64,000 nucleotides of DNA, taken from positions 6,972 to 70,971 of the forward strand of contig JAGGSN010000187.1 of NCBI GenBank assembly GCA_021159005.1. Reading direction: 5' to 3'. The notes beneath the pieces were generated by a model, which saw nothing but the letters and a program-made list of their open reading frames with translations, searched no databases and was not told where the DNA came from. Numbering within the stretch: position 1 is the stretch's first letter; the number at the start of each line of letters is the position of its first letter. Origin of the DNA: Candidatus Zixiibacteriota bacterium (GTDB lineage Bacteria > Zixibacteria > MSB-5A5 > UBA10806 > 4484-95). Shown here one piece after another: positions 4,546-46,690 of the stretch. The position numbers and the translations under genes are program-made.

Positions 4546-6894
4546 ATGAATTCTCATGCACTTGAAGTACTGGAGTTTGATCGGATAGTTGAAAAACTCC
4601 ATGGATTATGCTGGAGTATTCCGGCTAAAAGATACCTTATTGAACCTACCATTAACTCTGATTGGATTGAACATTCTCTCGATTGCTTAGCGGAGATGGT
4701 TGATGTATACAAATCCGATGGCGGTCCTCCCACATTGGTTTTTGATGATATAGATATGATGTTGGAAAAAACAGCGGCTGAAGGTGTTGTGCTTGAACCG
4801 TCAGAATTGATTAAAACGGCAAATTTATATAATGTTGTTATGGGCTTTAAACAACTAAATAAAAAATATGCTAATATAGGCAGAATTTGTGAAAAATTGA
4901 CATATAGCGATGAGATTACCGCTGGAATCAACCAGGCAATTTTGCCGCCCAATGAAATTAAAGACAACGCTACGCCCGAACTGAAAAACATCCGCCGGCA
5001 AATAAGACAAACCAGACAGCGGCTCGAATCGAAATATAATTCCTATCTCGAATCTGATTATGCCAAATACCTCTCCGATAATGTCGTTACCGTAAGAGAC
5101 GGGCGTTTTGTTCTTCCGGTAAGGGAAGGCGATAAAAACCGCATACAAGGCATTGTGCACGATAGATCATCCACTGGCGCCACATTTTTTGTCGAACCGC
5201 TCGATGCTGTCGAATACAACAACAAATACCGCGAATTATTAGCCGCTGAAAAACAAGAAATTTTCCGCATTCTCAGAACCTTAACAGATCTTGTCCTCGA
5301 AAGCATCGATTCTATTAAAAGCAATATTAAAATCCTTGTCGAATTGGATATTTATTCGGCAAAAGCAAGGTTGGCAATAAAGCTTAAATGCAGCCGCCCC
5401 AAAATCAACGATGAAAGCTATTTCGATATTAAACGAGGCTTCCATCCCTTGCTGCGCTGGCGCGATATACAAAACGGTAATGATGCCTTAGTCCCGCTTG
5501 ATATCGAGCTTGGTAAAGAATTTACAACGCTGGTAATAACCGGTCCCAACACCGGCGGCAAGACTGTCGCCTTAAAAACGGTCGGTCTTGTCTGCCTGAT
5601 GGCGCAATCCGGCATGTTTATTCCTGCGGCTGAGGGTTCATCCGTACCGATTTTTAAAAATATATTCGCCGATATAGGCGATGAGCAATCGCTTGAATCA
5701 TCGCTTTCGACATTTTCGGCACATCTCGCCAATATCAAAACTGCGCTGAGCGAGGCTGCTCATGAATGCCTCGTGCTCTTAGATGAAATCGGCGCCGGCA
5801 CCGATCCCGATGAGGGCGCGGCGCTGGGGCAAGCTATTATAGAAAAGCTAACCGAACAAAATATCCTCTCGATAGTAACCACACATCACGGCAAACTCAA
5901 AACGCTGGCTATTAACATCGAGGGCGTTCAAAACGGTTCGCTCGATTTCGACAGCCGCAACATGAAGCCGACATACCGCTTCAGGCTGGGAACGCCCGGC
6001 CTTTCCTATGCCATCGAAACCGCAGTTAAAATCGGCTTGGATAAATCAATTACCGAACGGGCTGAATCGCTAATCGACCGCTCGGAAAGAAAACTGGCGC
6101 GTATTATTAGCGAACTTTCGGAAAAACTTCAGGCAACAGATGAAACTTTAGTCGAGGCGGAAAATAAAAGACTATCGTATGAAGCATTGTCGAATATTTA
6201 TAAAGAAAAACTCGATAATGTCCAGCAAGAACAAAAGCGTATAAAAAAGGAAGCTCTTCAAGAAGCCGAAAAGATGGTTTACAAACTTAAAGGCGAGATA
6301 ACCGACCTTATTGATGAGGCGAAAAAATCTGACAAGAAAGTAGAAGCCTTTCGCGCCGCCAAACATCAGGCTCAGGAGCAGATTCAAAACCTTAATGAAA
6401 AAATTAGGCAATTCGAACCGCCTGTTAATCAAGCGGCGGCTGATGGAACCGAAGGCGAAAAAGTGTATCTCCCCGACTTGAAAGCAATCGGCGAAATTGT
6501 CGAAAAACCCGAACCCAGCGGCAAGGTGCGAGTGCGCATTGGCAATGTGATTCTGCATACTGAGATGCGAAAGCTTTTCAAATCATCCGAACAGGGTGAA
6601 GCAAAAGCGCCGATAACTCATACCAATCCTTTTGTTAATGTTGACCCGTCAATGGAAATCGATTTGAGAGGCATGACATTCGATGAAGCTCAACCGGTGC
6701 TCGATAAATACCTCGAGGATGTATACCAGGCTCATCTTGATAACGTAACCGTAATCCATGGCAAAGGCACTGGCGTCTTAAGAATCAAGGTGCAGGATTA
6801 CCTTAAAAGACATTCCAAGGTAAAATCATTCCGGCTTGGCAATTGGAATGAAGGCTCATTCGGCGTAACGATAGTCGAGATTGTAAAGGACTGA
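4546..6894 (+). CDS. mutS2: endonuclease MutS2
   Basis: GPNTGGKTV Walker A, DEIGAGTDP, long coiled-coil, C-terminal Smr domain (VIHGKGTGVLR); start placed at MNSHALEVLEF. Confidence 0.85.
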   Translation: MNSHALEVLEFDRIVEKLHGLCWSIPAKRYLIEPTINSDWIEHSLDCLAEMVDVYKSDGGPPTLVFDDIDMMLEKTAAEGVVLEPSELIKTANLYNVVMGFKQLNKKYANIGRICEKLTYSDEITAGINQAILPPNEIKDNATPELKNIRRQIRQTRQRLESKYNSYLESDYAKYLSDNVVTVRDGRFVLPVREGDKNRIQGIVHDRSSTGATFFVEPLDAVEYNNKYRELLAAEKQEIFRILRTLTDLVLESIDSIKSNIKILVELDIYSAKARLAIKLKCSRPKINDESYFDIKRGFHPLLRWRDIQNGNDALVPLDIELGKEFTTLVITGPNTGGKTVALKTVGLVCLMAQSGMFIPAAEGSSVPIFKNIFADIGDEQSLESSLSTFSAHLANIKTALSEAAHECLVLLDEIGAGTDPDEGAALGQAIIEKLTEQNILSIVTTHHGKLKTLAINIEGVQNGSLDFDSRNMKPTYRFRLGTPGLSYAIETAVKIGLDKSITERAESLIDRSERKLARIISELSEKLQATDETLVEAENKRLSYEALSNIYKEKLDNVQQEQKRIKKEALQEAEKMVYKLKGEITDLIDEAKKSDKKVEAFRAAKHQAQEQIQNLNEKIRQFEPPVNQAAADGTEGEKVYLPDLKAIGEIVEKPEPSGKVRVRIGNVILHTEMRKLFKSSEQGEAKAPITHTNPFVNVDPSMEIDLRGMTFDEAQPVLDKYLEDVYQAHLDNVTVIHGKGTGVLRIKVQDYLKRHSKVKSFRLGNWNEGSFGVTIVEIVKD

Positions 6895-14633: not shown

Positions 14634-14682
14634 TATTTATCGGATGCTGAGGCTTTGCCGCGTGATAGATAATTTCAGGCAG

Positions 14683-14721
14683 TGTTAGTTCATAGTCCGC
14701 CTAAGGCGGATGAACTGACAC
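14683..14721. repeat. family-C long hairpin repeat (…TCAGTTCATAGTCCGCCTAAGGCGGATGAACTGACAC), copy 1, plus partner motif ACCTGCCTGAACAGTTAAATG at 14748-14780
   Basis: inverted repeat around a CCGCCtaaGGCGG core; near-identical copies at 17922 and 29265. Confidence 0.7.
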
Positions 14722-14865
14722 GTTTTACTACACAAAATCGGCAGGTTACGTTTCACTACGACCTGCCTGAACAGTTAAATGAGGGGCAGACGGGGACGTC
14801 TGCCGCCCACGCGAATCCTTGTCCACCATAGGCGGACTTAGGTTGTTGAAAAAGCAGCAACACCT

Positions 14866-16413: not shown

Positions 16414-16440
16414 TGGTTGGCGTACGTCCTCGTCTGCCAA
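16414..16440. repeat. family-A hairpin repeat (consensus GGCTGGTGTACGTCCTCGTGCACCAGC), diverged copy
   Basis: ggttggcgtacgtcctcgtctgccaac. Confidence 0.6.
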
Positions 16441-16555
16441 CTTAAGAAATAAAGAATAGCCAAGACCACAAGTCCGCCTCAGTCGGATTGACCTACAAAA
16501 TACTAAACGTTCCCCTTTTATTGAATATATCGATATAATCATTTGTTAACAGTCT

Positions 16556-16600
16556 GAGGGCGTATGCAATACGAGGGCGTATGCAATACGCCCCTACGCG
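16556..16600. repeat. family-B hairpin repeat (GAGGGCGTATGCAATACGCCCCTACGCG), 1.5 tandem copies
   Basis: GGGCGTAT-gca-ATACGCCC perfect 8-bp stem. Confidence 0.75.
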
Positions 16601-16612
16601 AACGGTGTTTCA

Positions 16613-16667
16613 GTGGCTGGTGTACGTCCTCCTTTATAGTGGCTGGTGTACGTCCTCGTGCACCAAC
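16613..16667. repeat. family-A repeats: truncated copy then full copy
   Basis: ggctggtgtacgtcctcc…ggctggtgtacgtcctcgtgcaccaac followed by caataagtt as at 28039. Confidence 0.75.
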
Positions 16668-16676
16668 AATAAGTTC

Positions 16677-16746
16677 AGGGCGTATGCAATACGCCTCTAC
16701 GCGCAACGGCATTTCAGTGGTTGGTGTATGTTCTTGTGCACCAACT
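16677..16746. repeat. composite B + A unit (B 16677-16704, A-variant 16718-16746)
   Basis: same B-spacer-cagtgg-A arrangement as 16574-16667 and 27970-28038. Confidence 0.7.
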
Positions 16747-17866: not shown

Positions 17867-17921
17867 TTATTCCCCTCTTGAGGGAGGTTAGGGGTATGTT
17901 ATTAACGCAAAATTTTATGTT

Positions 17922-17962
17922 GTGTCAGTTCGTAGTCCGCCTAAGGCGGATGAACCGGCACT
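17922..17962. repeat. family-C long hairpin repeat copy 2, plus partner motif at 17988-18021
   Basis: tgtcagttcgtagtccgcctaaggcggatgaaccggcac … cgtttcgctacgcatgcctaaacagttaaatg. Confidence 0.7.
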
Positions 17963-18099
17963 TTTTGCTTGATAAGAATATCGCCAGGTCACGTTTCGCT
18001 ACGCATGCCTAAACAGTTAAATGTTCTGAAAATAAAATGGGGAAGCTCCTATTTTACTAAAAGATTGACCGTTAATACAGTTATCTATATATTAAATAC

Positions 18100-24904: not shown

Positions 24905-24917
24905 TTAATAATTTTGT

Positions 24918-24949
24918 GGCTGGTGTGCATCACCGTGCGCCAGTTTTTA
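24918..24949 (+). terminator. family-A repeat variant followed by T-run, acting as intrinsic terminator
   Basis: GGCTGGTGTGCATCACCGTGCGCCAG + TTTTTAT 14 nt after the stop codon. Confidence 0.5.
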
Positions 24950-25238
24950 TGATATGCTGTCAGGTGCGGGGACATGACAGCGCTTGAAAATCATTTAAAG
25001 CTATTAATTAATATCACTGAATAGTCAGGAGTCGGAGACTCCTGACCTACTTCCTAAATATATAGTGAGTGCAAGGTAATTTTAAATATCAAATCTCACT
25101 CAGTTATCGCAGGTTGGGTTCTCCACCCCAGGCGGATGAGTGGAGCGAACGAGCGGACGAAGTCCTTTATTCAACCCGACACCTCTCACAACAATATAAT
25201 ATTTTTTCCTTTAGTAAAATCCCTATCATAATCGAAAT

Positions 25239-25269
25239 GTCGGGTTTCTCCCGTTGGTCGGAACCCGAC
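25239..25269. repeat. family-D hairpin repeat (GTCGGGTT…AACCCGAC)
   Basis: gtcgggtttctcccgttggtcggaacccgac; related copies 27812-27857 and 28054-28091; half-sites at 78-90 and 1630-1645. Confidence 0.6.
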
Positions 25270-25299
25270 CTGCTCTACTATAACAGATTGTGTGATAAC

Positions 25300-25413
25300 G
25301 GAAAACAAAAGAAACTCGCACTGACAGCATGTATGAAAAAACTCCTCTTGATAATACGGAGCATGCTAATTAACAAAACAACCTTTAATCCTGAAATAAA
25401 TAGCTTGACTTGA
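25300..25413 (+). pseudogene. IS110-family transposase C-terminal remnant
   Basis: NGKQKKLALTACMKKLLLIIRSMLINKTTFNPEI resembles the conserved C-terminus of IS110/IS1111 transposases; no N-terminal DEDD domain present upstream. Confidence 0.4.
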
Positions 25414-25428
25414 AAGACGGTATCTACA

Positions 25429-25455
25429 AAGCTGGTGTACGTCCTCGTGTAGCTT
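25429..25455. repeat. family-A hairpin repeat, diverged copy, immediately 3' of the IS110 remnant and flanking the GIY-YIG gene
   Basis: aagctggtgtacgtcctcgtgtagctt. Confidence 0.6.
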
Positions 25456-25458
25456 ATG

Positions 25459-25863
25459 CTATTTATGAATATTCCATGATTTCTGAGGCAACGTTGCTAT
25501 TATTGCATTTTCGAGTCCGTTGATCATATCGATTTCCAAACCGCTACTATACTGCCTATTTTCGGATGGTTTCCATGCCAGAATCTTTACCTTTTTATTC
25601 TCTCTAAGAGCTTGTTTAATCAATTCCGCAATCCGTTCATTAGTCCCAGCGCCTATCATTCCTTGGTATCGTCCCATGCGGTCCTTCAAAGTAGTTGTTG
25701 AACTTTGACACGCACCGACATACATGACTTCATCATTAACCAAAAAAGCATAAATAACTCTATCATCTTTGCTTTTATTTAGACTAAAACGTACGCCACT
25801 GCTCAAGTTTTCATCTAATAAACATTCACCAACTTCATTAAATTCAAGTCCTGATATTTCCAT
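25459..25863 (-). CDS. small GIY-YIG-like nuclease family protein
   Basis: RVIYAFLVNDEVMYVGACQSS…R…NERIAE fits GIY-(10)-YVG…R…E pattern; 134 aa. Confidence 0.5.
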   Translation of the reverse strand: MEISGLEFNEVGECLLDENLSSGVRFSLNKSKDDRVIYAFLVNDEVMYVGACQSSTTTLKDRMGRYQGMIGAGTNERIAELIKQALRENKKVKILAWKPSENRQYSSGLEIDMINGLENAIIATLPQKSWNIHK

Positions 25864-25893
25864 AAAACCTCCTGAAAATGGTAGTTATTTTGT

Positions 25894-25920
25894 GGCTGGT
25901 GTACGTCCCCGTGCACCAGC
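25894..25920. repeat. family-A hairpin repeat
   Basis: ggctggtgtacgtccccgtgcaccagc. Confidence 0.75.
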
Positions 25921-26052
25921 TATTTTATCGCCGCGGTGAGTCGAACCGAGGCTGAAAGCCTCGGCTATTATATATCCTAATATATTATATACTTCAAGAT
26001 GGTTCATCTCAGGTGAGCCGTATGACTGTAGGGATGCGGTTGCTCTTGGCAA

Positions 26053-26421
26053 CTACCGTTTCGATTTCTTACTCGATGTGTCCTTCTCGCTGTTTTTCTT
26101 TTCGATTTTTTTAACCTTCACCGGCATTTTCTGCTCAATTTTTGGTTTGGGCTTGGGTGGCGCAACCTTCTTGACAGCCGGCGCTTTGCGTTTCTGATAA
26201 TCATCGTTAATTCCATCGCCGTCTTTGTCGATAAACTTATCTTTCACAGGTAAGGCTGCAGCTTTCGATTTCAGTTTTACAGCCGGCGTTTTCTTATCAA
26301 TCTTCTTTTCGATTTTGGTCGAATCTTTTTTGCTTTTCTTAGACACTTTCTGAATAGCAAAAGCCTCCGCACCGCTCATAGCTATGAACAGCGCCAACGT
26401 CAATATAATTACTTTTTTCAT
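26053..26421 (-). CDS. secreted Lys-rich protein with thrombospondin-type-3-like Ca-binding motif
   Basis: signal peptide MKKVIILTLALFIAMSGAEA; DKDGDGINDD; KKSKK low-complexity; start ATG overlaps upstream gene stop (ATGA). Confidence 0.55.
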   Translation of the reverse strand: MKKVIILTLALFIAMSGAEAFAIQKVSKKSKKDSTKIEKKIDKKTPAVKLKSKAAALPVKDKFIDKDGDGINDDYQKRKAPAVKKVAPPKPKPKIEQKMPVKVKKIEKKNSEKDTSSKKSKR

Positions 26422-27782
26422 TTCCTGCCTCTTTCCTTAGAATATTTCGACCCGGATTTGGAGCTTCCGCTTTTTAATTTGTCGCTGGTTTTAGAACGTA
26501 CAGGTTCGGCTTTTTTAGACTCGTTTTTCTTGATATTGTCTGACTTTTTATTATCTGTTTTTTTTACTGAAGTTTGTCCCGAATTCGGTTTTTTCTGCTT
26601 CTGCTTTTTATTTATAATAATATCTTTATCGTCAGAATTCAAGGATTTACTGCTTTTTTCCCGTTTAATCTGATATTCTCTATCTTTTTGGGGATAATTG
26701 TGAATATTATCCTTTTTGTTTTTTTCTTTAAATATTAATCCGCTATTTTGCTTATTAATCTTTTCCGTGTAGGTTCCATCATTAAAAATCCTATCCGAAT
26801 ACTTTTTCTGCACTCTTGATGGCGGAGTATGAAGCGGCCTGGTATGTTTAACTCGATATTTTTCCGCTTCCCTGACAAAACCGGGATCGTTGCGGTGCTT
26901 CTCCTGTTTAAATCTCCAATTTTTCATATTCGAGCGGCCATAATCGAAATCCCGGAATTTTCGTTTAATCTTGGCATCGACATAATATCGCTGACCTCTT
27001 GTTACATAAACATAATCCTGCCAGCAGGGATAGCCATGATAATAAATCCATACCCAGTGACGGCCAATATATATTTCCGGTATAAGAATTGGCGCGATGC
27101 CGAAATAACAGCCGTCAATCCAGATCTCGGCGCCCGGGTAATCACAGCCAATCCAGATACTGCCAATATAATACGGGTCATAACGCCAGTAGCGGTACCA
27201 ACTGTGATGCCGGTAGCGGTTATCGATAAAAAACATCGTCGAGGCGGAAATATAAGACCCATTCCTAACAATTCTATTATTTAGGTCGTTTACGAAAACC
27301 GCCATCTCGCCGCGCATCGTATGAACGAAATCATCATAGTAGCTGTCCCAGTTGCCATACTCAAAATATTCATAACGCATGAATTCGGGAGGGTCAATCC
27401 GGTAGGGGCTGGCAACGGCGTAAATATATTCCTTGCCCTTAGGTCCGGTTACCTCAAGCCGGTAATCATCATAAGCATCGGGGATACGGTAAACCTCTTC
27501 GCCGCGAATAAAACAATCGCTGTTGTAATCGGATGGGAAAAGAAGGCTGACATTGCCGGCTGGATCGATATCATAAATCACCGCATAGCAATCCTCCGAA
27601 GCGCGAAAATAAACAGCCACATCTTCGCCGAAATAATATGTCGCTCCATCGCTTTTATTAACCCAGACATCAATCTCAAGGTTGTCAACCCTGCTGATGC
27701 CGTGTTTCTGGTCGGCGGAGGCGGCAACTGTCATAATTGCGGCCAGCGCTATTACCATTAAATTTCTCAAATGCTTTTTCAT
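26418..27782 (-). CDS. secreted DUF4384/PEGA domain protein with Trp/Tyr-rich region and Lys-rich C-terminal tail
   Basis: signal peptide MKKHLRNLMVIALAAIMTVAASA; PGAEIWIDGCYFGIAP PEGA-like motif; true start at 27782 (the track ORF extends upstream only by reading through repeats). Confidence 0.6.
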   Translation of the reverse strand: MKKHLRNLMVIALAAIMTVAASADQKHGISRVDNLEIDVWVNKSDGATYYFGEDVAVYFRASEDCYAVIYDIDPAGNVSLLFPSDYNSDCFIRGEEVYRIPDAYDDYRLEVTGPKGKEYIYAVASPYRIDPPEFMRYEYFEYGNWDSYYDDFVHTMRGEMAVFVNDLNNRIVRNGSYISASTMFFIDNRYRHHSWYRYWRYDPYYIGSIWIGCDYPGAEIWIDGCYFGIAPILIPEIYIGRHWVWIYYHGYPCWQDYVYVTRGQRYYVDAKIKRKFRDFDYGRSNMKNWRFKQEKHRNDPGFVREAEKYRVKHTRPLHTPPSRVQKKYSDRIFNDGTYTEKINKQNSGLIFKEKNKKDNIHNYPQKDREYQIKREKSSKSLNSDDKDIIINKKQKQKKPNSGQTSVKKTDNKKSDNIKKNESKKAEPVRSKTSDKLKSGSSKSGSKYSKERGRK

Positions 27783-27811
27783 ATCAACCACCTTGTTTAA
27801 TATTATTGTAG

Positions 27812-27857
27812 GTCGGGTTCTCCGCCTAAGGCGGACCGTAGCGGGGAGAAACCCGAC
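27812..27857. repeat. family-D hairpin repeat containing CCGCCTAAGGCGG core
   Basis: ggtcgggttctccgcctaaggcggaccgtagcggggagaaacccgac. Confidence 0.6.
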
Positions 27858-27888
27858 GCCGTTTGCTTTATTATGGTTTGAGGCATGC

Positions 27889-27999
27889 GAGGGCGTATGC
27901 AATACGCCCCTACGCGGAATAGCATGCGAGGGCGTATGCAATACGCCCCTACGCGGAATAATAGCATGCGAGGGCGTATGCAATACGGCCCCTACGCGG
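27889..27999. repeat. three tandem family-B repeats (39-42 bp period), no unique spacers
   Basis: gcatgcgagggcgtatgcaatacgcccctacgcggaata x3. Confidence 0.8.
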
Positions 28000-28011
28000 A
28001 ACAGTAATTGT

Positions 28012-28038
28012 GGCTGGTGTACGTCCTCGTGCACCAGC
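28012..28038. repeat. family-A hairpin repeat
   Basis: ggctggtgtacgtcctcgtgcaccagc then caataagtt. Confidence 0.8.
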
Positions 28039-28053
28039 AATAAGTTATTGTAA

Positions 28054-28091
28054 GTCGGGTTCCGACCCAACGCAGTAGGGGAGAAACCCGA
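28054..28091. repeat. family-D hairpin repeat
   Basis: gtcgggttccgacccaacgcagtaggggagaaacccgat. Confidence 0.55.
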
Positions 28092-28219
28092 TACAACCAC
28101 TTCATTTAACCCGATGCCGCTTGATTTGTTTTCATCTTTCATCATCGCTGCCTTTTTCTACAGCTGGTATCCGCCATTGACGGACACCAACCATATTACC
28201 CTATAAGAAATTATGCCCC

Positions 28220-29047: not shown

Positions 29048-29264
29048 TGAAACCTCCTGTTGTTATCGTCTGATAATTAATTAATCAATAATCATGCCAA
29101 AATCGCTAATTCTGTAACATGCAGTCTTTCAGGGAGATATGGTTTTACGTAAAAATGTCGGTTGCTGTTATGCACAATATTTGTTCGTTTGGCAACTATA
29201 GTTGTGCATGGCTATTATTCACATTGCAGGGAAATCCGAGCCGCCTAAACATTTGATTCGGGGT

Positions 29265-29304
29265 TGTGTCAGTTTGCAGTCCGCCTAAGGCGGATGAACT
29301 GACA
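29265..29304. repeat. family-C long hairpin repeat copy 3
   Basis: tgtgtcagtttgcagtccgcctaaggcggatgaactgacaca. Confidence 0.7.
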
Positions 29305-29566
29305 CATATAGCGAAGACAGGAACCACTGCCTGATTCCGGTAATATAAAAGTATCAATGTTGATAGGGAAATATTCCTGACAACGCTTGAATTAATCACT
29401 CCCTGATAATTTTTTAAATTTTGTAAAAACAAAATAATATCAACTTTGTTAATTGTGGTTAGGTTATTCTATATAATTGTGATTCATAGTCTTAAATGGA
29501 ATTATTAATGTTAAGCAATTGGCTTGCCAAACCGATAAAATATTTTAAATGTTTTAAAAAAAGTTC

Positions 29567-29807: not shown

Positions 29808-31016
29808 ATGGCCAAGGAGAAATTTGAGCGAACGAAACCGCATGTGAATGTAGGTACGATAGGTCATGTTGATCATGGCAAGACTACATTAACGGCGGCG
29901 ATGACGATGATATTGGGTCGCAAGGGTCAGGCGGCGGTTCGCGATTTTGATTCGATTGACAATGCTCCGGAGGAGCGTGAGCGCGGCATAACGATAGCGA
30001 CGGCGCATGTTGAGTATGAGACCGATAGGCGTCATTATGCTCATGTTGATTGTCCTGGTCACGCCGATTATGTTAAGAACATGATAACGGGTGCGGCCCA
30101 GATGGATGGCGCGATATTGGTAGTTAGCGCGGCGGATGGTCCGATGCCTCAGACGCGCGAGCATATATTATTGGCACGTCAGGTAGGAGTTCCTTACATA
30201 GTTGTATTCATGAACAAGATAGACCAGGTAGATGATCCTGAGTTATTAGACTTGGTGGAGCTTGAGGTACGGGATTTATTGAGTCAGTATCAATTTCCGG
30301 GTGATGACATTCCGATAATTCGTGGTTCGGCATTAGAGGCTATGAATCGCGGCGCTGATGAGAGCGTACCTTATGATGATCCTGCTTTTAAGTGTGTGCA
30401 TGAGTTGATGGATGCGGTAGACAGCTATATACCGGAGCCGAAGCGTGATATTGACAAGCCGTTTTTATTGCCGATAGAGGATGTATTTTCGATAACGGGT
30501 CGAGGTACGGTAGGAACGGGTCGAGTTGAGCGCGGCAAGATAAAGACCGGTGATCCTGTTGAGCGTGTTGGTGTTAGGGAGACTCGCAAGACGGTAGTAA
30601 CGGGTGTTGAGATGTTTCGGAAGATATTGGATTATGCTCAGGCGGGCGATAATGTAGGTTTGTTATTGCGCGGAGTAGATAAGAATGATCTTGAGCGCGG
30701 CATGGTTTTGGCGGCGCCTGGCAGTATTAAGCCGCACAAGAAGTTTAAGGGAGAGGTATACATTTTGACGAAGGAAGAGGGTGGTCGTCACACGCCGTTT
30801 TTCAATGGTTATCGTCCGCAGTTTTATTTTCGGACGACGGATGTAACAGGTACGGTGAAGCTTCCGGAAGGTGTTGAGATGGTAATGCCTGGTGATAATG
30901 TAACAGTAGAAGGCGAGTTAATAACGCCGATAGCGATGGAGAAAGAGCTTCGTTTTGCTATCCGTGAAGGCGGCCGCACCGTAGGCGCCGGCGTTATTAG
31001 CGAAATAATAGAGTAA
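29808..31016 (+). CDS. tuf: elongation factor Tu (copy 1, tufB-type position)
   Basis: [25 protein letters not shown]; 402 aa; identical to the copy at 45482. Confidence 0.95.
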
Positions 31017-45481: not shown

Positions 45482-46690
45482 ATGGCCAAGGAGAAATTTG
45501 AGCGAACGAAACCGCATGTGAATGTAGGTACGATAGGTCATGTTGATCATGGCAAGACTACATTAACGGCGGCGATGACGATGATATTGGGTCGCAAGGG
45601 TCAGGCGGCGGTTCGCGATTTTGATTCGATTGACAATGCTCCGGAGGAGCGTGAGCGCGGCATAACGATAGCGACGGCGCATGTTGAGTATGAGACCGAT
45701 AGGCGTCATTATGCTCATGTTGATTGTCCTGGTCACGCCGATTATGTTAAGAACATGATAACGGGTGCGGCCCAGATGGATGGCGCGATATTGGTAGTTA
45801 GCGCGGCGGATGGTCCGATGCCTCAGACGCGCGAGCATATATTATTGGCACGTCAGGTAGGAGTTCCTTACATAGTTGTATTCATGAACAAGATAGACCA
45901 GGTAGATGATCCTGAGTTATTAGACTTGGTGGAGCTTGAGGTACGGGATTTATTGAGTCAGTATCAATTTCCGGGTGATGACATTCCGATAATTCGTGGT
46001 TCGGCATTAGAGGCTATGAATCGCGGCGCTGATGAGAGCGTACCTTATGATGATCCTGCTTTTAAGTGTGTGCATGAGTTGATGGATGCGGTAGACAGCT
46101 ATATACCGGAGCCGAAGCGTGATATTGACAAGCCGTTTTTATTGCCGATAGAGGATGTATTTTCGATAACGGGTCGAGGTACGGTAGGAACGGGTCGAGT
46201 TGAGCGCGGCAAGATAAAGACCGGTGATCCTGTTGAGCGTGTTGGTGTTAGGGAGACTCGCAAGACGGTAGTAACGGGTGTTGAGATGTTTCGGAAGATA
46301 TTGGATTATGCTCAGGCGGGCGATAATGTAGGTTTGTTATTGCGCGGAGTAGATAAGAATGATCTTGAGCGCGGCATGGTTTTGGCGGCGCCTGGCAGTA
46401 TTAAGCCGCACAAGAAGTTTAAGGGAGAGGTATACATTTTGACGAAGGAAGAGGGTGGTCGTCACACGCCGTTTTTCAATGGTTATCGTCCGCAGTTTTA
46501 TTTTCGGACGACGGATGTAACAGGTACGGTGAAGCTTCCGGAAGGTGTTGAGATGGTAATGCCTGGTGATAATGTAACAGTAGAAGGCGAGTTAATAACG
46601 CCGATAGCGATGGAGAAAGAGCTTCGTTTTGCTATCCGTGAAGGCGGCCGCACCGTAGGCGCCGGCGTTATTAGCGAAATAATAGAGTAA
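45482..46690 (+). CDS. tuf: elongation factor Tu (copy 2, tufA-type position)
   Basis: protein identical to copy 1; nucleotide identity extends from ~10 nt upstream of ATG to the stop. Confidence 0.95.

Follow-up and report, generated by a model that had tools for sequence, protein, structure and literature searches.

A predicted T4 endonuclease II-like nuclease gene among abundant hairpin repeats in a Zixibacteria genome

A 134-aa ORF with a GIY-YIG-like core lies between two copies of an abundant hairpin repeat, here called the A family, in a candidate division Zixibacteria MAG, which raises the question of whether nuclease and repeat belong together. The preliminary description of the locus had proposed that they do, i.e. 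as a repeat-associated cassette or as a nuclease servicing the A repeats. If true, this would have meant a non-HUH enzyme mobilising or servicing REP-like repeats. We analysed the stretch of 64 kb that holds the gene (the window) and compared it with ~80 homolog loci gathered from genomes and metagenomes. Our data favour with good probability a stand-alone, probably active nuclease of the T4 endonuclease II (EndoII)/Hpy188I branch, i.e. mobile cargo located at a breakpoint, to which the A hairpins are incidental.

The gene and its predicted product

The gene and two neighbouring features are as follows (window coordinates throughout).

25459..25863, minus strand: predicted GIY-YIG nuclease gene, T4 endonuclease II/Hpy188I-like; intact ORF, 134 aa
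25868..25872, minus strand: Shine-Dalgarno sequence GGAGG, 4 nt 5' of the nuclease ATG, read off the sequence
25946..25964, plus strand: GC-rich stem-loop CCGAGGCTGAAAGCCTCGG from a scan for terminator-like structures; unrelated to A, between the nuclease gene and the next minus-strand gene

The ORF had been described correctly: sequence and ORF list agree on an ATG start and a TAG stop, with GGAGG 4 nt upstream. In the databases, the identical protein is annotated as 'hypothetical protein J7K40_11685' of a candidate division Zixibacteria MAG. Its GIY and YIG motifs read V-I-Y38 and M-Y48-V-G50, about ten residues apart in a beta-hairpin. In the alignment of 18 homologs, four positions (Y48, R62, E118 and N131) do not vary at all, and conservation of Y38 and G50 is 90 % or more; the catalytic residues Y38, Y48, R62, E118 and N131 are all present in the 134-aa protein, which ends directly after the catalytic Asn (N131).

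The Pfam search proposed in the preliminary description was negative, i.e. no family matched the protein, PF01541 included, even at E≤10, and the NCBIfam and PADLOC scans returned nothing relevant. Therefore, the family assignment rests on remote homology and predicted structure. PHROG 1111 ('endonuclease') matches residues 28–132 (E=4e-9), and phmmer against the PDB sequences finds T4 EndoII (2WSH; E=0.0015). A profile of the 18 homologs reaches EndoII with E=7e-7, aligning residues 5–131 with EndoII 14–139 (chain numbering). In this alignment, R62 corresponds to R57 and N131, part of an invariant WN131, to N130, and the invariant GLE118N aligns with the LEE segment of EndoII, so that E118 corresponds to E117/E118 within one residue; EndoII E118 is the residue mutated in 2WSH. 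The AlphaFold (AF2) model of the protein (pLDDT 88.9, pTM 0.85) shows an N-terminal beta-hairpin, the two GIY/YIG strands (E37–42 and E45–51) and the expected helices, in keeping with a GIY-YIG alpha/beta fold. A Foldseek search with this model ranks T4 EndoII at the top (E=1e-5, TM 0.67) and Hpy188I next; in the structural comparison with EndoII, 121 residues are aligned, with 26–28 % identity in structural alignments.

The GIY-YIG-like core noted earlier is thus borne out by the EndoII profile match, PHROG 1111, the structure comparison and the conserved motifs. Judged by sequence and predicted structure, the 134-aa protein belongs with the GIY-YIG nucleases of the EndoII/Hpy188I branch and has its catalytic residues intact. 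Among distant members of the family, PF01541 matches P0142 inside the homologous region with E=0.014, under the gathering score, and P0106 with E=4.5e-6, above the gathering score, N-terminal of the best family match.

A free-standing GIY-YIG homing endonuclease of the Seg/I-TevI type was considered and rejected, as there is no room for a C-terminal NUMOD/HTH domain after the catalytic Asn. The context gives the same picture: tblastn of the nuclease against 50,697 phage records gave no match, and no phage genes lie near the window gene. Among plasmids there was one distant match, annotated 'GIY-YIG nuclease family protein' and located among metabolic genes. The 'END nucleases' of a recent preprint (PMC12191111) are endonuclease III/PLD fusions and irrelevant to the 134-aa protein.

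By analogy with its characterised relatives, the protein would use one-metal-ion GIY-YIG catalysis, in which Y38/Y48 and R62 would attack the scissile phosphate and Mg2+ would be bound by E118. Its target would be dsDNA, cleaved by phosphodiester hydrolysis as in T4 EndoII and Hpy188I, and the N-terminal beta-hairpin would aid DNA binding or oligomerisation as in T4 EndoII.

The nuclease family elsewhere and the origin of the gene

An exhaustive profile search recovered 1,235 representatives (clustered at 50 % identity) at E≤1e-3 and 597 at E≤1e-10, spread over bacteria and archaea. Many family members (P0039, P0019, P0022, P0026 etc.) carry an N-terminal extension of ~100 aa, which in P0039 (270 aa) corresponds to Pfam DUF7664 (E=1e-24); in others, the extension is C-terminal and resembles no Pfam family.

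Comparison of the flanks of each gene among the ~80 homolog loci revealed direct repeats of 81–88 nt with an internal hairpin around the homologs in L009 and L018 and inverted repeats of ~20 nt in L004/L005, L016, L021 and L033. A tiny element bounded by terminal inverted repeats (TIRs) or a long target duplication was considered for L004/L005, L009, L016 and L018 and rejected, since the motifs are the R''/R' and L''/L' pairing of attC sites. Specifically, GTTAGGC (the R' core, GTTRRRY) lies ~25 nt 5' of the ATG, and the ORF is followed by GCCTAAC (R'', RYYYAAC), L'', a variable centre, a complementary L', a 5-nt spacer and GTTRRRY, over a total length of 59–131 nt. Scan and inspection together place such integron-type sites in about 20 of 60 distinct homolog loci, with canonical attC in L004, L009, L013, L023, L029, L030 and L033 and GTTAGCC before the ATG in L018 and L066. 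Consecutive attC sites surround unrelated neighbour cassettes in L020 and L033, and the array of L009 runs on into an MNT-HEPN pair. Given these cores, their pairing and the arrays with unrelated cassettes, the TIR and target-duplication reading was dropped; attC sites are the substrates of integron integrases, not of the protein that a cassette carries. Where the homolog is not a cassette (about 40 loci), its flanks held no direct or inverted repeat of a non-attC kind that stood out above shuffles.

Cassette homologs can be seen in L009 (1703–1790 and 2225–2312), L018 (flanks of 390–800), L033, L020, L070 and L026, from hydrothermal, sediment and groundwater metagenomes; consecutive attC sites are 84 % identical within an array. 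In L004/L005, the homolog has the appearance of a solitary cassette, with housekeeping genes (ruvABC, deoC, lexA) around it.

A second group of homologs has neighbours known from restriction-modification (R-M) and defence, as follows.

L012, 4297-4695: HsdS-HsdM-Mrr, then the nuclease homolog
L075, 1602-2018, and L063, 500-928: nuclease homolog immediately 5' of hsdS
L039: nuclease homolog adjoining GmrSD
L025: nuclease homolog after an AIPR gene
L037: nuclease homolog between a DNA methylase and a HATPase_c_3 protein
L010: nuclease homolog within a cluster of several restriction enzyme and methylase genes
L006: nuclease homolog after a Qat system and an integrase

A subset thus sits inside Type I R-M operons, either before hsdS or after hsdM-mrr, a position at which accessory defence nucleases such as PrrC are known. 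Further homolog loci lie among housekeeping genes. In L001 (contig ZORZ22 scaffold_72), the homolog (6001–6420) is translationally coupled to an upstream 133-aa gene (5598–5999) without Pfam match, whose product may be a partner or immunity protein.

The integron cassettes and the R-M and defence neighbourhoods therefore mark the family as typical mobile cargo of the accessory genome. Phage-defence genes are among the known contents of integron cassettes (bioRxiv 10.1101/2024.07.02.601719), and one integron of Aeromonas has been described as holding a GIY-YIG cassette (PMC10609294).

At the window gene itself, the stop side is occupied by the scar of an insertion sequence.

25264..25426, plus strand: IS110-family remnant; last ~49 transposase codons and the element end CTTGACTTGAAAGACGGTATCTA; adjoins an A fragment

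The adjacent IS110-like remnant had been recognised before, and holds: its 49 aa at 25264–25410 match the C-termini of IS110/ISEc32 transposases (tblastn; 47.7 % identity, E=8e-5), with weak NCBIfam and PHROG matches in addition. The 23-nt element end CTTGACTTGAAAGACGGTATCTA occurs twice in the window, at 340–362 and 25404–25426, and both copies are followed after 4 nt by GCTG(A/G)TG, which may be the right half of the RNA-guided target of the IS110 element. When positions 1–400 and 24990–25460 were aligned, the common part was this 23-nt end and no longer element.

The nuclease gene has a GC content of 37.0 % and a GC3 of 31.9 %, both 1.8 SD below the genes of the window (z=−1.8). The claim that it lies in the only accessory stretch of the window did not survive, as the gene immediately upstream, of 152 aa, belongs to the conserved core of Zixibacteria and has more than 1,000 homologs. 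The cbiQ...purS-purQ-tatA-152aa operon is preserved in relatives at ~80 % amino-acid identity, which do not have the nuclease gene at this position and each carry different DNA downstream; therefore, the nuclease gene sits at a synteny breakpoint. An exact empty site was sought via the conserved 152-aa neighbour and not found, the ~80 %-identity relatives being rearranged downstream. Together, the low GC and GC3, the gene-less relatives with their differing downstream DNA and the adjacent IS110 scar point to a foreign origin of the nuclease gene.

Besides the scar, the neighbours of the nuclease gene encode predicted secreted proteins or lipoproteins with signal-peptide-like N-termini. No methyltransferase ORF was found at 22–30 kb of the window, and neither a methyltransferase nor an immunity gene adjoins the nuclease gene. 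A Type II restriction-modification pair was ruled out, since there is no adjacent cognate methyltransferase.

Could the window gene be a decayed integron cassette, its attC lost to IS110 insertion, deletion and colonisation by A repeats? This idea concerns the origin alone and is compatible with the explanation that we prefer. It draws on the closest clades being cassette-borne (L018 and L066; L004, L009, L013, L023, L029, L030 and L033), on the lone cassettes among housekeeping genes elsewhere (L004/L005) and on the IS110-family scar lying exactly where an attC would be expected; Tetu and Holmes reportedly described in 2008 a subgroup of the IS110-type IS family that targets attC. However, the core sites GTTRRRY and RYYYAAC are absent at the expected positions beside the nuclease gene, a strict attC scan of the 64-kb window found none (the same scan recovers sites in the homolog loci), the window holds no integron integrase, and its flanks share no nucleotide similarity with those of the homologs. 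We therefore regard a decayed cassette as unlikely.

The preferred explanation, i.e. a stand-alone nuclease carried as cargo, would account for the locus as follows. The family would travel as horizontally mobile cargo, in other organisms as an integron cassette or as an R-M or defence-island gene, and a single copy would have landed at the end of a conserved operon in the Zixibacteria MAG, at an IS110-hit synteny breakpoint, where A hairpins would fill most large intergenic gaps whatever the neighbouring genes. Its role would most plausibly be that of a restriction-like or anti-mobile-element nuclease, not that of a repeat servicer, a defence function being suggested by the neighbourhoods. 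Our verdict is that the window gene encodes an orphan nuclease, was acquired by horizontal transfer and lies where synteny breaks off and IS110 elements have inserted as well.

A-family hairpins beside the gene and across the window

The A copies nearest to the nuclease gene, with two further ones that bear on their interpretation, are listed below.

24919..24944, plus strand: degenerate A copy with a T-run behind it; located 14 nt past the stop of the conserved 152-aa core gene
25431..25449, plus strand: A fragment of 19 nt; 5' arm, loop and 4 nt, without the 3' arm and without TTnGTGG
25895..25920, plus strand: complete A hairpin GCTGGTGTACGTCCCCGTGCACCAGC, a generic intergenic repeat with perfect core, 31 nt from the nuclease start codon
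28013..28038, plus strand: consensus A copy, which together with the 25895 copy brackets a two-gene unit (26053-27782)

The repeat family reported earlier is real: its core, GCTGGTGTACGTCCYCGTGCACCAGC, occurs in 9–11 copies in the 64-kb window in relaxed searches, with none expected from shuffles. The 11 copies of the window (at 116, 16416, 16616, 16642, 16720, 24919, 25431, 25895, 28013, 62329 and 62361) share one orientation (plus) across 62 kb, and most have a 5' TTnGTGG extension. A conserved T.G wobble in the stem on the plus strand becomes an A.C mismatch on the minus strand (−11.6 versus −10.3 kcal/mol). The single orientation together with the wobble suggests a strand-specific role of the A repeats, either at the RNA level or in ssDNA, in the direction of the genes, most of which are on the plus strand.

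The gene had been described as precisely bracketed by A hairpins, which stands for the start side only. The copy at 25895–25920 is a true hairpin, folding as ssDNA with −11.6 kcal/mol (z=−6.2). The stop-side copy, previously placed at 25429–25455, proved to be a 19-nt fragment in the same (direct) orientation, wedged between the IS110 scar (4 nt off its 5' side) and the nuclease ORF; it does not form a stable hairpin (−4.2 kcal/mol; z=−1.5), being equalled by 14 of 200 shuffles. Since neither the 5' extension nor the 3' arm is present in this copy, the bracketing consists of one true hairpin and one fragment.

To judge the bracketing against chance, a cleaned gene model was used, with 77 entries (genes and tRNAs), which leaves 32 intergenic gaps of at least 40 nt. 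A copies were found in six of these 32 gaps, and five of the seven gaps that measure 427 nt or more hold them. Unrelated genes have A copies close to their stop codons, at distances of 11, 14 and 6 nt (copies at 16416, 24919 and 62386), and the copy after the 152-aa gene stop shows that A adjoins unrelated genes. When the six A-bearing gaps were placed at random, at least one single gene was bracketed with P=0.45 (unweighted) or P=0.62 (length-weighted). Furthermore, A-like sequence (up to five mismatches) was sought in 89 fetched loci (~440 kb), i.e. the ~80 homolog loci and also two related Zixibacteria loci, and gave no match.

Thus, homologs of the nuclease are not flanked by A, and A is as much at home around unrelated genes as beside the nuclease, so that neither a repeat-associated cassette nor an A-servicing nuclease is upheld. 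The hairpins are an ordinary intergenic repeat beside many unrelated genes, and hence no evidence of a special nuclease-plus-repeat cassette. As part of the explanation that we consider probable, judged on the one genome with A repeats that was available, the proximity of A to the nuclease gene is incidental, and A is a generic REP-like intergenic repeat of this genome. Dense REP-like repeats can produce apparent 'cassettes' by chance, and the nuclease locus is an example.

A selfish cassette would require that a segment of ~445 nt had inserted into an A hairpin, with 19 nt (GCTGGTGTACGTCCYCGTG) doubled in a long target-site duplication, which staggered nicks made by the encoded nuclease might have produced. 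The 19-nt direct repeat at 25431–25449 and 25895–25913 (18 of 19 positions identical, z=8.7 versus shuffles) and the GC content of the nuclease gene below its surroundings would fit. However, the 19 nt are the mere core of a family with nine other copies nearby, and the left copy has in addition lost its 5' side to the IS110 end, which argues for several independent events and not for one clean insertion. No homolog shows such a duplication, the long direct repeats seen elsewhere all being consecutive attC sites, and the window contains no second copy of the segment. Insertion of a selfish cassette is therefore highly improbable.

The precedent for a nuclease flanked by its own substrate is the Ssn family (cd10448; SsnA has 94 aa), which in Neisseria cuts ssDNA next to the NTS/SRM hairpins; for 42 % of its homologs, the cognate hairpin repeat lies on both sides of the gene (Chenal et al. 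2025, PMC11893778). That the window nuclease would likewise recognise the A hairpin as ssDNA and cut nearby could be argued from this precedent of small GIY-YIG nucleases, from the A copy on either side of the gene, and from the single A orientation and the G.T wobble (stronger plus-strand hairpin), which fit strand-specific recognition, but is hardly credible given that the bracketing is expected by chance, that one flanking copy is a non-folding fragment, that A repeats are absent from ~80 homolog loci, that ~40 non-cassette homolog loci show no flanking repeat other than attC, that the SRM search pattern has no match in the window, and that the protein, with its 134 aa, EndoII-type N-terminal beta-hairpin and best match to T4 EndoII, is unlike the 94-aa cd10448 type. 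We give equally scant credence to the related idea that a second, independent GIY-YIG lineage (EndoII-like) was recruited in Zixibacteria to cut the strand-oriented A hairpin, with its gene placed among its substrates like ssnA.

Several REP-like families are unusually abundant in this genome. A second palindromic family, GAGGGCGTATGCAATACGCCCCTACGCG, is interleaved with A copies at 16550–16708 and 27883–28002, at the latter place as three tandem units of 39–42 nt, which artificially lengthen the ORF 26418–28145; translation of this ORF probably starts at 27782, with the Met of a signal peptide. A third intergenic family of ~59 nt, with the hairpin GTCCGCCTAAGGCGGAT at its centre, occurs at 14671–14729, 17911–17969 and 29255–29313. 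Two further unrelated palindromes, GCTGTCAGGTGCGGGGACATGACAGC and AGTCAGGAGTCGGAGACTCCTGACT, lie in the stretch from the 152-aa core gene to the IS110 scar (24905–25070), which makes the breakpoint region a hairpin mosaic. The window also holds two 402-aa EF-Tu (tuf) genes, at 29808–31016 and 45482–46690, which show 100 % identity over their first 300 nt at least, a pattern that gene conversion between the two copies would explain.

Since the evidence does not support a non-HUH repeat enzyme, the nuclease locus is that of an ordinary accessory gene, and the value of the analysis attaches mainly to the uncharacterised EndoII-like family and not to the window locus. The cellular T4 endonuclease II relatives make up a sizeable family (~1,200 clusters), which Pfam, NCBIfam and PADLOC all miss. 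As they recur as integron cassettes and in R-M and defence islands, they are reasonable candidates for defence screens. It is tempting to speculate, though the odds are rather against it, that the family is an unrecognised single-gene anti-phage or anti-plasmid nuclease that spreads in integron cassettes and as an accessory gene of Type I R-M operons.

Comparison with known systems

With REP/RAYT systems (REPtrons), the window shares abundant, short, GC-rich imperfect palindromes that are intergenic and often lie just past stop codons. However, a RAYT is an HUH Y1 (IS200-like) transposase flanked by inverted REPs, whereas the window protein has a predicted GIY-YIG fold and its two flanking A copies are in direct orientation, as all 11 A copies of the window have one orientation.

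The likeness to integron cassettes lies in the compact single-gene format of ~460–520 nt and in the many homologs that are textbook cassettes; unlike these, the window copy is without attC core sites, and the 64 kb around it hold no integrase.

Like the Ssn nucleases, the protein is encoded by a small GIY-YIG gene flanked by an abundant hairpin repeat of its genome. In contrast to the single-domain Ssn proteins of about 94 aa (under 150), it has 134 aa with an EndoII-type N-terminal extension and EndoII as best match, which speaks against membership, and it probably belongs to a different GIY-YIG branch, with EndoII and Hpy188I as nearest relatives. Ssn homologs often have their own hairpin flanks across genomes, whereas homologs of the window nuclease are flanked by attC-type repeats only, and the published SRM pattern (HGTCWY...RNCYNB) had no match on either strand of the 64-kb window. 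Membership of the Ssn family is thus not supported.

The GIY-YIG restriction and defence nucleases R.Hpy188I, R.Eco29kI and PD-T4-3 resemble the window nuclease in that its homologs occur in R-M operons and defence islands. They differ in being much longer, and the window nuclease lacks an extra recognition domain; in addition, the window gene has no adjacent cognate methyltransferase, and no PADLOC model matches it.

Finally, T4 endonuclease II (DenA; PDB 2WSH) is phage-encoded, whereas the window nuclease lies in a bacterial chromosome and had no tblastn match in the 50,697 phage records. T4 protects its own DNA by hmC glucosylation, a counterpart of which is not evident for the window nuclease, and in the alignment EndoII is without the invariant Cys52 and the G71-x-G73-T-N75-x-R77 segment of the family. 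Nevertheless, the two proteins are alike in size (136 versus 134 aa), share an N-terminal beta-hairpin followed by the GIY-YIG core, and can be aligned over their full length by profile (E=7e-7) with the catalytic Arg, Glu and Asn in register.
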